From contig MFIX01000140.1 in NCBI GenBank assembly GCA_001780825.1, positions 1-34,323 on the forward strand: a stretch of 34,323 nt of DNA. Direction: 5' to 3'. This document shows, one piece after another, positions 276-4,257 of this stretch; position 1 is the stretch's first letter, and the number at the start of each line of letters is the position of its first letter. Both the position numbers and the translations under genes were made by a program. A model generated the notes under the pieces. It made no database searches and was not told where the DNA came from. It saw nothing but the letters and a program-made list of their open reading frames with translations. Source of the stretch: Candidatus Glassbacteria bacterium RIFCSPLOWO2_12_FULL_58_11. GTDB lineage: Bacteria > Gemmatimonadota > Glassbacteria > GWA2-58-10.

Positions 276-491
276 TCACACCAGAACTTTGTCCGCCTTC
301 TTAATCGTCTCGACATCGTAATGCTCGAGGACCTTGTAGAAGTCGAGCAGCTTGCCGCAGTCCGGGCATTTCTGCGGCAGGTAGAAGAACGTCGCTTTCA
401 GTTTCCCATCCACCACCCGCACCGGCTGCTCGACTTTGGAATGGCAGCGGCTGCATTCCCATTTCGGTGAGATAAACTCAACTTTCGGCAA
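276..491 (-). CDS. Small zinc-ribbon protein (71 aa), function unknown
   Basis: Two CxxC pairs (CSRC, CPDC); TTG start with GAGGAG RBS 9 nt upstream on the minus strand. Confidence 0.7.
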   Translation of the reverse strand: MPKVEFISPKWECSRCHSKVEQPVRVVDGKLKATFFYLPQKCPDCGKLLDFYKVLEHYDVETIKKADKVLV

Positions 492-758: not shown

Positions 759-971
759 ATGATAGATTTTCAGGCCATACGCTCGCGGCATCTTCTGGTA
801 TTCAGAAGATACGCCGCTTTTCGCGATATGAACCTCGGACCGACCCGCCGTGCCAGTGCGGAGATCGAGGCAATTAAGAATCTGACCCTGATAGTCAAGC
901 GGCAATTAGACAACCGGGCCTCATTTCTTCCGGCGGAATTGATCGGCCGGAATATCGATGTCAGCTTCTGA
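759..971 (+). CDS. Hypothetical small protein (70 aa) ending in G-x-x-I-D-x-x-x
   Basis: C-terminus LIGRNIDVSF resembles the YjfB-like terminal motif; no clear RBS. Confidence 0.35.
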   Translation: MIDFQAIRSRHLLVFRRYAAFRDMNLGPTRRASAEIEAIKNLTLIVKRQLDNRASFLPAELIGRNIDVSF

Positions 972-1184: not shown

Positions 1185-1217
1185 AAAAAAAGGCCCGGGA
1201 ATGTGATTCCCGAGCCT
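1185..1217 (-). terminator. Rho-independent terminator
   Basis: Minus strand AGGCUCGGGAAU-cac-AUUCCCGGGCCU then a U run; the single + strand C/A mismatch is a G-U pair on the minus strand, fixing orientation. Confidence 0.85.
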
Positions 1218-1310
1218 CGAGCACAAAAAGCGAGAGATCTATTTGGGGTTCCCGGAAGGGGGTAGATTGGTATCGGCTTCTTTGTGCTCCGTTGTTTCAA
1301 CCTTTGACAC
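1185..1310 (-). ncRNA. Candidate small RNA (~125 nt) with C-rich apical loop
   Basis: Bounded by a sigma28-like promoter and an intrinsic terminator; stem GAGCACAAA(G)AAGC / GCUUUUUGUGCUC (1289-1276 with 1231-1219); loop CCCCCUUCCGGGAACCCC. Confidence 0.6.
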
Positions 1311-1315
1311 TGTTT

Positions 1316-1343
1316 TTATCGGCAATCTGGAAAGTTTACTTTA
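1316..1343 (-). promoter_or_regulatory. Sigma28 (FliA/SigD)-type promoter
   Basis: Minus strand TAAA (1343-1340), 16 nt spacer, perfect GCCGATAA (1323-1316). Confidence 0.7.
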
Positions 1344-1508: not shown

Positions 1509-1919
1509 ATGGATCTCAGCTCTATGTCCAGCACGCGGTACGCCGAGCGTGCTTTTCAGCCGCAGTTTTACCAGCAGCCGCATTATTCTGCGCCCGGAGT
1601 TTCCCCGGGCCAGCCTGGAGCGAGTCCGCTTCCCGGCTCGACCTGGGGCGCCGACAAAACGGTCTGGGTGGCGCAGGACCAGGAGAAAGCCGGCCTGGAG
1701 AAAATCCATGTCAGCGAGGCCGGACAAAGGATGCTCGGCCGGATGGCCGGCCTCTGGGAACTGCAGACCGGAGTGGTCAGAAGGTTCAAGGACGAGCAGA
1801 ACAGCTCCGAGCGGGCGGCTGTCTCCAGCCAGTTTTTGACCCGCAATGCGATCAATGCCCTGGAAGCGGTTAAATCGCGCTTTGCGGTCGCCGGCGCATC
1901 GATCGACATTTATGCTTGA
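1509..1919 (+). CDS. Hypothetical protein (136 aa), low-complexity N-terminus, ending AGASIDIYA
   Basis: G-rich RBS at 1497-1502; GC-rich coding-like codon usage; internal EKIHVSEAG and terminal G-x-x-ID-x-Y-A motif. Confidence 0.6.
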   Translation: MDLSSMSSTRYAERAFQPQFYQQPHYSAPGVSPGQPGASPLPGSTWGADKTVWVAQDQEKAGLEKIHVSEAGQRMLGRMAGLWELQTGVVRRFKDEQNSSERAAVSSQFLTRNAINALEAVKSRFAVAGASIDIYA

Positions 1920-2031
1920 CATATTCGCGGCTGGAAATTATTTATCGGGTTTAATTTATCCGGCGTTATTTTCCCCGTGCCACGGCGTGGTCATCGGCCT
2001 GCGCCGTTCGTTGACTCCAGGAGGACCGATT

Positions 2032-2757
2032 ATGCGCGCTGGGCGTTCAATGTTATTCGTTTTCTCGGCAACTTTGTTTCTGTTGTTGGGATGTTCGAAC
2101 AGGCCCACATATTACTTGAAATTGCAGTTGCAAGGGGCGGATGCTGTTTGCCAGGGAGTGCAGATCGCATTCTCCTCTTATAATTACGTAGAAGTGCTGG
2201 ACAGCTTGACCAAAATGAATAACCCCGGCCCCCGGCCGGATTCGACTGAGTTGATGGCTCTGGTGGCTACCTACCAGACAATTCTGGAAAAAAGCGCCCG
2301 CATGGCGGACGCGGTCGATACCCTCCGGGATGCGCTTGAAAAACTCGACAGCAAAACCGTGGATTACCGGAAAAAATATCCCCTGTTCCAGCGGCTCGAA
2401 AAAGAACTGCAGGAACGAATGGTGGAGCGCCAGCAGATTCACGAGCAGTACCTGGAGGCCAAGGGTTCTTACGATATTAAGTTAAAGGATTGGCAGACCT
2501 CGGCCTACAAGGGTTTCAGCGATTTCAAATCGAGTATTATTCCCGAGTTCCAGACCAAGGTGGAGCTGACGGATCAGGATTGCATGGTTAAGAAACTGGA
2601 CCTGCCTTATACGAGATGGTGGCTGCATTGCGAGACCCGGAAACCGGGCTCGGCCAATGAGAAATTGATCTGGGAAATGGAAATGCCGGTGGGCGCGGAC
2701 TCCCTGATGATAATTCTTGATGAAAGCAATGCCAAGGTATCTAAAGAGATGCTCTGA
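2032..2757 (+). CDS. Predicted lipoprotein with central coiled coil (241 aa)
   Basis: GGAGG at 2020-2024 before ATG 2032 (track start 1846 is over-extended); signal peptide with lipobox LLGC. Confidence 0.8.
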   Translation: MRAGRSMLFVFSATLFLLLGCSNRPTYYLKLQLQGADAVCQGVQIAFSSYNYVEVLDSLTKMNNPGPRPDSTELMALVATYQTILEKSARMADAVDTLRDALEKLDSKTVDYRKKYPLFQRLEKELQERMVERQQIHEQYLEAKGSYDIKLKDWQTSAYKGFSDFKSSIIPEFQTKVELTDQDCMVKKLDLPYTRWWLHCETRKPGSANEKLIWEMEMPVGADSLMIILDESNAKVSKEML

Positions 2758-2997: not shown

Positions 2998-4257
2998 ATG
3001 AACTATCATATTGCTGATCCATCCCTGGCCAAGGGTGGCAAGAAAAGAATCGATTGGGCCGAGCACGATATGCCGGTGCTGCGCCTCGTGCGCGGGCGGT
3101 TCCAGAAGGAGAAGCCGCTGGAAGGCGTAAAAATGAGCGCCTGTCTGCATGTGACCGCCGAGACTGCGAACCTGTGCCGTACGCTGGCCGCGGGCGGCGC
3201 GGACCTGGTCCTGTGCGCCTCGAACCCGCTCAGCACCCAGGATGATGTCGCCGCCTCGCTGGTAAAAGATGATAAGTTCAAAGTATTCGCAGTCCGCGGT
3301 GAGGACCACGATACCTATTACTCCCATATTCACAGCGCGATCAAGCACAAGCCGACAATCACGATGGACGATGGGGCGGACCTGGTCTCCACGATACATG
3401 CCGAGTATCCCGCCCTGGTGGGCAAGATCATGGGCAGTATGGAAGAGACTACGACCGGGGTGATCCGCCTCAGAGCGATGGCCGTCGATGGGGCGCTGAA
3501 AATCCCGGTGTTCGCGGTCAATGATGCGCAGACCAAGCACCTGTTCGACAACCGCTACGGCACAGGCCAGTCAACTGTGGATGGGATTATCCGGGCGACG
3601 GATATTCTGCTGGCCGGAAAAAATGTGGTCGCCGCCGGATACGGTTTCTGCGGGCGCGGTTTTGCCATGCGCGCCCGCGGCATGGGCGCCAATGTCATTA
3701 TTACCGAGGTTGACCCGATCAAAGCGATCGAGGCGGTGATGGATGGCTACCGGGTGATGACCATGAAAGAAGCCGCGGTTGTCGGCGACCTGTTCTGCAC
3801 CCTGACCGGCGATATCAATGTTGTACGCCCCGAGCATTTCAAGCTGATGAAGGATGGAGCGATTGTCTGCAACAGCGGACATTTCAATGTCGAGCTCGAT
3901 CTGAAGGGCCTGGCCAAGCTGGCGGTCAAGGTCGAAAAGAACGTACGAAAAGAAGTGGATGCTTATTATCTCAAGGATGGCCGGAAAATTTTCGTACTCG
4001 GTGAGGGCCGGCTGATCAACCTGGCCGCTGCCGAGGGCCATCCGGCCTCGGTGATGGATATGAGCTTCGCGGTCCAGGCCCTGACCACCGAGTACGTGGT
4101 CAAAAACCACAAGAAATTCAGCCCCCGGGTGTATGAGGTCCCGGAAGCGATCGATAACTGGGTCGCCGAGCTGAAGCTGAAATCCATGGGCGTCTCGATT
4201 GATAAGCTTACCCCGGAACAGGTAAAATATCTCGCCAGCTGGACCATGGGAACCTGA
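2998..4257 (+). CDS. ahcY: Adenosylhomocysteinase (SAH hydrolase)
   Basis: Motifs [54 protein letters not shown]. Confidence 0.97.

Follow-up and report, generated by a model that had tools for sequence, protein, structure and literature searches.

A probable sigma28-driven small RNA family of Glassbacteria and its predicted pairing with the leader of a type IX-secreted cargo mRNA

Does the short minus-strand segment at 1185-1343 of this contig hold a gene for a regulatory RNA, and on which partner would such an RNA act? The window analysed here is the whole 34,323-nt stretch of DNA, in which the sequence-only reading had seen a self-contained, sigma28-driven small RNA at this place. Promoter conservation, covariation, Rfam searches and the comparison of reading frames support that proposal, and we regard a real, conserved small-RNA gene under a sigma28-type promoter in Glassbacteria as very likely. 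Its partner can be named with less confidence; the best candidate is the 5' end of a long mRNA leader that precedes the gene of a type IX-secreted (T9SS) cargo protein.

The promoter consists of a -35-type element, TAAAG, at 1339-1343 and a -10-type element, GCCGATAA, at 1316-1323, both on the minus strand, with the spacing TAAA-N16-GCCGATAA. The E. coli FliA (sigma28) promoters given in Table 2 of PMC4183435, tar, flgMN and motAB among them, have the same two elements separated by N15, so that the spacer in the window is one base longer. Both elements had been named beforehand from the window sequence and are borne out by the homologues: TAAAG(TTT) and xCCGAT(A) are kept in all 19, and TAAA-N15/16-xCCGAT ends 21-28 nt before the start of the covariance model in each of the 19 distinct copies, although the promoter was excluded from every homologue search, pattern scans and covariance model alike. 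An earlier count by eye had found it in 17 of 17 homologues. The FliA-type promoter thus lies directly upstream of the small RNA in an organism that bears FliA, which a profile search places above the curated cut-off in the window's own genome (G000, 4.17 Mb; 255 bits) and in 13 of 13 class genomes. Five flagellin-N matches are present in G000, and similar sigma28-type promoters precede the flagellin gene of C54 and occur in the interval between the two flagellin genes of C134. A loose sigma28 pattern is only weakly enriched across the genome, with 28 matches versus 9-21 for scrambled -10 boxes; the case for the promoter therefore rests on its conservation.

The predicted small RNA is about 125 nt long and covers 1185-1310 on the minus strand, starting near 1310-1308 and including the whole U-run at its 3' end. 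The start was placed by the distance from the -10 element and by a conserved xTG 7 nt after CCGAT, which in the window is the GTG at 1310-1308. This codon could also open a leaderless frame of 23 codons, the alternative that had been raised for the locus, and a start codon does fall at the predicted transcription start in 18 of the 19 copies, some of the frames being long. However, the frame lengths are 2, 5, 5, 5, 6, 6, 8, 23, 45, 47, 50, 55, 57, 73, 73, 50-93 and 103 codons, and one copy (L035) has no start at all. The core falls in different reading frames in different genera, indel lengths are not divisible by three, and conservation tracks the helices instead of a frame. The 5' leader of the RNA (1290-1310), variable in sequence and length in the alignments, shows no conservation, which also speaks against a peptide start there. 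We therefore rejected a small-protein gene, a reading that retains hardly any probability; apart from the 23-codon GTG frame the unit contains nothing but further short frames, and the earlier remark that no ORF led by a ribosome-binding site is present stands. As a separate observation, a 248-nt contig with six differences spans 1085-1332 of the window at a depth of 3.7 in two groundwater runs of one study. These runs are labelled metatranscriptomic and are probably DNA, and the contig extends past both ends of the unit; it shows that a near-identical strain was present in the groundwater sample.

Folding of 1312-1185 (128 nt) gives -44.0 kcal/mol compared with -30.0 ± 3.3 kcal/mol for 200 dinucleotide shuffles (z -4.2), none of which folds as well; the claim that the structure exceeds chance rests mainly on conservation and not on these single-sequence statistics. 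The 5' strand of the basal helix, GAGCACAAAGAAGC at 1276-1289, pairs with the 3' strand, GCUUUUUGUGCUC at 1219-1231, which is also seen in the RNAalifold consensus, and the two form 13 pairs with one bulge (1289-1276 with 1231-1219). Above it lie the inner stem AUCUA/UAGAU (1267-1263 with 1241-1237) and the loop CCCCCUUCCGGGAACCCC, so that the 13-bp basal stem, the inner stem and the C-rich loop described from the window alone all reappear in the fold. The loop contains a small CCC/GGG hairpin (1251-1262 in the RNAalifold consensus), whose three pairs are 100% paired across the alignment and whose loop of 4-9 nt differs in length and sequence. The predicted seed, CGGGAACCCCAAAU at 1241-1254, is unpaired in the consensus structure except for the GGG and is the most conserved unpaired stretch. 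The unit is closed by an intrinsic terminator at 1185-1218, with a stem at 1218-1192, a loop of three and a T-run that gives the U-run; the first reading had its presence and U-run right and counted 12 bp, where the consensus scan gives 13 pairs, seven of them G-C.

The sequence of the basal helix is, in most genera, conserved beyond what pairing needs, and this could be taken to mean that the RNA binds a protein, for example as a decoy that acts as a CsrA sponge in the flagellar CsrA-FliW circuit. Two CsrA homologues are encoded in G000, one of them beside a flagellin-like gene, and the conserved core includes GGGAA. Known CsrA sponges of the CsrB/RsmZ type carry several GGA motifs in hairpin loops. 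The small RNA lacks such a series of exposed GGA loops: it has a single conserved GGA-containing motif, the G's of which are paired in the mini hairpin, and the second GGGAA lies in the terminator stem. A CsrA decoy would also leave the co-varying leader complementarity described below unexplained, and we consider this reading very improbable.

To what extent is the structure maintained among relatives? A DNA search of 41 relatives matched five genomes including the window's own, all of one family, that is 4 of the 12 other family members and none of the 28 genomes of other families; the best match covers 1325-1188 exactly, from the -10 box to the terminator. Of the loci recovered by two pattern scans for the helix and core, 5 are in species genomes and 11 on metagenome contigs. 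With the covariance model, built from 13 distinct sequences with the promoter left out, 12 of the 13 class genomes each yield a single copy, in syntenic position; the exception is G011 (88% complete). A search of 121 genomes sampled from the phylum, at E <= 0.001, gives matches in 10, all belonging to this family, and none in the 108 genomes that represent 11 other families; the filtering was stricter in this search and also cost the two weakest members of the family. Double compensatory changes are seen at 18 of 26 base pairs, with 98.0% of cells paired, in a 21-row alignment that was fitted to the model and in which two rows are antisense matches to the palindromic terminator. None of 500 column shuffles reaches any of these measures, and 2-4 pairs with changes on both sides remain once the partners are shifted by 1-3 columns. 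Both helices contribute, since 9 of the 12 modelled pairs of the basal helix and 9 of 11 in the terminator change on both sides; the stem covariation that had been suggested as a check is thus present. Regarding known families, a search of the whole window against Rfam 15 at gathering thresholds returns no match, RsaE/RoxS and the curated flagellar RNA motifs included, and a permissive search of 1150-1360 gives eight best hits at E 3.1-6.9 with 11-17 bits, compared with gathering scores of 38-74; no family had been recognised by eye either. Among the papers listed in a literature search, none deals with small RNAs of Glassbacteria or Gemmatimonadota. The RNA is very probably previously undescribed. 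It combines a conserved structure, an exposed conserved seed and an intrinsic terminator with the absence of a conserved ORF, as is found for base-pairing small RNAs.

The locus is also syntenic. Upstream lie a divergent gene for a 136-148-aa protein starting MDLSSISS..RY and a lipoprotein gene; downstream follow a convergent ORF of about 70 aa and then a gene for a 71-aa double zinc-ribbon protein. In the window, the neighbouring genes occupy 1509-1919 (+), 1846-2757 (+), 759-971 (+) and 276-491 (-), and this neighbourhood is kept across the genera examined. Pfam and NCBIfam give no family above cut-off for the neighbours, the 71-aa protein having only weak zinc-ribbon matches. Because the zinc-ribbon gene (491-276) is syntenic downstream in several genomes, the element could be a cis-acting leader or attenuator of that gene, or else an untranscribed relic. 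Both readings have little to recommend them. The strong conserved terminator closes the unit, some 690 nt lie between its end and the start of the zinc-ribbon gene, and the conserved convergent 70-aa ORF falls in this interval; the terminator and this ORF make a zinc-ribbon leader unlikely. Selection acts on the promoter, the helices and the seed alike in eight genera, which argues against a relic. A stand-alone small-RNA gene thus remains the preferred reading.

We next consider the partner of the seed. CGGGAACCCCAAAU has a perfect 14-nt complement at G000:C5:9410-9423, the single occurrence in 4.17 Mb outside the small-RNA gene, where about 0.02-0.03 would be expected from base composition. 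The site starts 7-8 nt after a perfect sigma70 consensus, TTGACA-N17-TATAAT, and would thus coincide with the predicted mRNA 5' end or lie only a few bases from it. G000 holds 16 such perfect sites versus roughly 0.1 expected from composition, which indicates that the organism uses the classical sigma70 consensus; the 16 sites are in themselves candidate strong promoters of this genome. The leader is about 290 nt long and precedes the gene of a protein of 1598-1633 aa (about 1600 aa). This protein bears a signal peptide, the Pfam domains Por_Secre_tail and FlgD_ig and, at 41.4 bits against a cut-off of 23, the T9SS type A sorting domain TIGR04183; the neighbours of its gene encode cohesin/dockerin and cadherin/Ig-repeat proteins. 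Orthologues are found in 10 of 13 class genomes. The consensus promoter, the leader length (281-306 nt) and the position of the site are kept in the nine orthologous loci with an intact upstream region; from G008 the promoter and the 5' part of the leader only were recovered. The target gene was not found in G001 (91% complete), which carries the small RNA. Folded by itself, the leader leaves most of the 5' site unpaired and shows no more structure overall than its shuffles (z +0.86).

Two features of the cargo locus are recorded here for their own sake. The leader (G000:C5:9403-9735, L070) and its orthologues contain a conserved AAAAGGAGG about 100 nt in, with no conserved ORF behind it. The gene has two in-frame start candidates, each with its own GGAGG, and use of the upstream one would place about 25 further residues (M-K/E-Q...) ahead of the signal peptide.

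To compare the complementarity across genomes, the longest perfect complementary run between the interior of each small RNA and the 45 nt that follow the -10 box of the leader in the same genome was set against 5000 random 45-nt windows of G000. The run is 14 nt in G000 and G007 and 12 nt in G004, G010 and G005, lengths that none of the 5000 windows reaches, and 11 nt in G006, which is matched by one window. The complementarity is thus significant in 6 of 10 genomes, with runs of 11-14 nt. It is non-significant in G008 and G002 (both 7 nt; 727 and 644 windows, respectively) and in G009 and G012 (both 6 nt; 2046 and 1967 windows); in terms of genera, this concerns g3 in part and g4 fully. The duplex energies agree with these runs, those of G002, G009 and G012 falling within the shuffle range, except that the G008 duplex, which draws on G-U pairs and on the loop of the hairpin, reaches -29.2 kcal/mol, unmatched by any of 300 shuffles. 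Shuffling all 333 nt of the G000 leader in place of the first 45 gives 16 of 200 shuffles as good as the G000 duplex.

The changes that accompany these runs affect both partners. In G005 the seed UCCCCAUAGUGC and the leader start GCACUAUGGGGA form 12 perfect pairs in the same place as in G000, and in a pair table whose register was picked by hand the two genomes differ by double changes at four positions, with both partners altered. In G007 an extra U in the small RNA faces an extra A in the leader, giving 17 pairs, two of them G-U. In G006 and G010 a matched C-G versus A-U change is seen by eye beside a 1-nt bulge, and in G004 the hairpin loop CUCUCU faces AGAGAG in its own leader. Five of the six positive genomes are not independent, since they share the same inherited core, so that G005 is the one clearly independent case. 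Outside this locus, near-matches to the 14-mer with up to one mismatch in relatives fall in unrelated coding regions and are no commoner than for a reversed-pattern control, and a listing of 11-mer complements is dominated by chance matches. On this comparative evidence, pairing with the T9SS-cargo leader is somewhat more likely than not to be a genuine function.

A different possibility is a real sigma28-dependent small RNA whose main partners lie elsewhere, either G-rich ribosome-binding regions, as for RsaE/RoxS, or flagellar mRNAs. Its interior has two C-rich stretches, the T9SS-leader pairing is non-significant in two genera, and a sibling RNA family described below is predicted to pair with a flagellin leader. 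In G000 the interior also matches one flagellin leader, of the C54 type, at -38.6 kcal/mol, which 2-3 of 200 shuffles equal. This match is lost in the seven other genomes tested (20 to 152 of 200 shuffles), and the C54-type leader was accordingly rejected as a conserved target, being confined to G000. An RNAduplex scan of -150 to +90 around the starts of 3825 crude G000 ORFs (mean -19.5, standard deviation 3.8, top -35.4) is noisy, yields no clear ranking and shows no enrichment, flagellar or other, and flagellin genes rank 1419-3139 of 3825. The Shine-Dalgarno sequence before the flagellin genes is GGAGG, a poor fit to CCCC, and it is the T9SS-leader site that co-varies with the seed in G005. 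We therefore regard partners elsewhere as unlikely, if still the strongest of the competing readings. The earlier suggestion of a C-rich seed appears to hold as far as the seed role is concerned; its Shine-Dalgarno-type target is not supported, the best and only conserved complement being formed by the 5'-terminal nucleotides of a long mRNA leader.

Pairing with the T9SS-cargo leader can be placed in a mechanism as follows. FliA-holoenzyme would transcribe the stand-alone gene of about 125 nt. Late flagellar genes follow FliA in the canonical cascade order, and a FliA-type promoter implies that the small RNA would build up while these genes are on. The RNA would consist of a variable 5' tail, the 13-bp basal helix closing an interior of about 45 nt with the CCC/GGG hairpin and the exposed C-rich stretch, and the terminator, and the exposed CGGGAACCCCAAAU would pair with the first 14-17 nt or so of the roughly 290-nt leader. 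Since the predicted duplex occupies the very 5' end and over 200 nt separate it from both candidate start codons, an effect on stability is likelier than a block of the ribosome site. The duplex may shield the mRNA 5' end from 5'-end-dependent decay of the RNase E/G type, which would amount to activation. A buried 5' end should hinder 5'-end-dependent decay and a duplex of 14-17 bp is short for RNase III, so we lean, by a narrow margin of judgement, towards stabilisation over destabilisation. RNase E/G is present in G000 (507 bits), and neither Hfq nor RNase J was found above cut-off in this 91% complete genome. What the comparisons show is the sequence and its conservation, the covarying structure, the conserved promoter and the partly co-varying complementarity; from these we infer that the gene is transcribed, where exactly it starts, that the two RNAs pair in the cell and in which direction the regulation goes. 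The explanation as a whole, a stand-alone FliA-driven RNA that acts in trans by pairing with the 5' end of the T9SS-cargo leader and alters mRNA stability, is moderately probable in our judgement.

Several characterized small RNAs offer comparisons. UhpU, MotR, FliX and FlgO of E. coli are described in PMC10578931 as sigma28-dependent, UTR-derived and Hfq-associated. As far as that description goes, they share with the Glassbacteria RNA the control by the flagellar sigma factor, base pairing (predicted here) and an extra post-transcriptional layer. Unlike those four, the Glassbacteria RNA stands alone with its own promoter and terminator in a genome in which no Hfq was found; its predicted partner is a T9SS-cargo leader and not a flagellar or ribosomal-protein mRNA, and no similarity in sequence or through Rfam links them. 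Campylobacter is not known to have a classical Hfq system. It has the sigma28-dependent paralogues CjNC1 and CjNC4 (PMC4626219) and a FliA-dependent partner in a two-sRNA circuit (PMC11187230). These RNAs, in the accounts cited, are likewise stand-alone and sigma28-dependent, and their paralogues recall the second related sigma28-driven family described below; they differ in belonging to another phylum, in having no sequence relation and in their different predicted targets. RoxS of B. subtilis is said to act on yflS by pairing at the extreme 5' end, which reportedly changes decay and not translation initiation, with RNase J1 as the blocked nuclease. RoxS/RsaE and our RNA share a C-rich single-stranded seed and, in the RoxS-yflS case as reported in PMC5419742, a site at the mRNA 5' end. 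In contrast, the Glassbacteria RNA has no Rfam RsaE match, is under sigma28-type control and would involve RNase E/G instead of RNase J. With no Rfam match, a stand-alone gene, another phylum and another predicted target, it is a member of none of these systems.

A second sigma28-driven small RNA family, here called family B, scores 31-42 bits with the covariance model of the first and is probably its distant sibling. Members occur in G002, G003, G004, G005, G008 and G012 (L041-L044, L046, L048), and by eye in G000 at about 3280-3460 (+) of C63 (L084). Their structure comprises a GNRA-like 5' mini hairpin, the basal helix UGCACAAAC/UGUGCAG, an ACCCCCC-loop hairpin, the CUUCUUCGCGGAAG hairpin and a terminator. 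For about 45 nt the interior of family B is the complement of a segment that lies some 100 nt inside another sigma28-driven transcript. In G000 this complement (C134:4768 to the contig end, L083) gives -55.0 versus -36.5 ± 3.1, and the cognate pair of G004 (C86, L088) gives -53.4 versus -30.3 ± 3.7, with 0 of 200 shuffles as good in both cases. Loci for the same transcript are found in G001 (C382, L086) and in G007 (C1, L087), where it forms the leader, about 830 nt long, of a flagellin gene (MPGLSINTN...). These RNAs would act on long leaders, a view to which the complement of family B in a long flagellin leader lends support.

Two further sigma28-type elements were noted in G000. At C134:1795-2095 (+), before the flagellin gene at 2515, lies the promoter TAAACTTT-N11-GCCGATAT; about 190 nt after it comes the helix GCACAACAACAUC...GAUGUUUAUUGUGCC, with a U-run. 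The segment could represent a third RNA related to these families, or else an element of a leader. At C60:7207 (-), the promoter TAAAGAGATTAATTATCTCTGCCGATAA precedes a small ORF, about 63-70 aa long and rich in lysine.

Hardly any regulatory RNAs are known from outside the cultured model phyla, and the candidate described here, found from genomes alone, is backed by promoter conservation, covariation and a co-varying target site. The covariance model can be used for annotating Glassbacteria MAGs. If the proposed explanation is true, sigma28-dependent riboregulation would reach a lineage distant from E. coli and Campylobacter, and the RNA would be a natural case of small-RNA action at an mRNA 5' end where RNase E/G is present and Hfq undetected. 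A wider and more tentative reading, to which we give somewhat less credence than to its opposite, is that in this uncultured, Hfq-less lineage FliA drives a small network of sibling small RNAs acting on the long leaders of abundant envelope mRNAs by 5'-end protection and not by occlusion of ribosome sites. The RNA described here would cap the 5' end of the mRNA for a giant T9SS-secreted surface protein, and family B would bind a flagellin leader over about 45 nt; flagellar completion would then be linked, at the post-transcriptional level, to the composition of the cell surface. For the single pair of partners considered here, flagellar assembly would be tied to a type IX-secreted surface protein, a plausible switch between the motile and the attached state.
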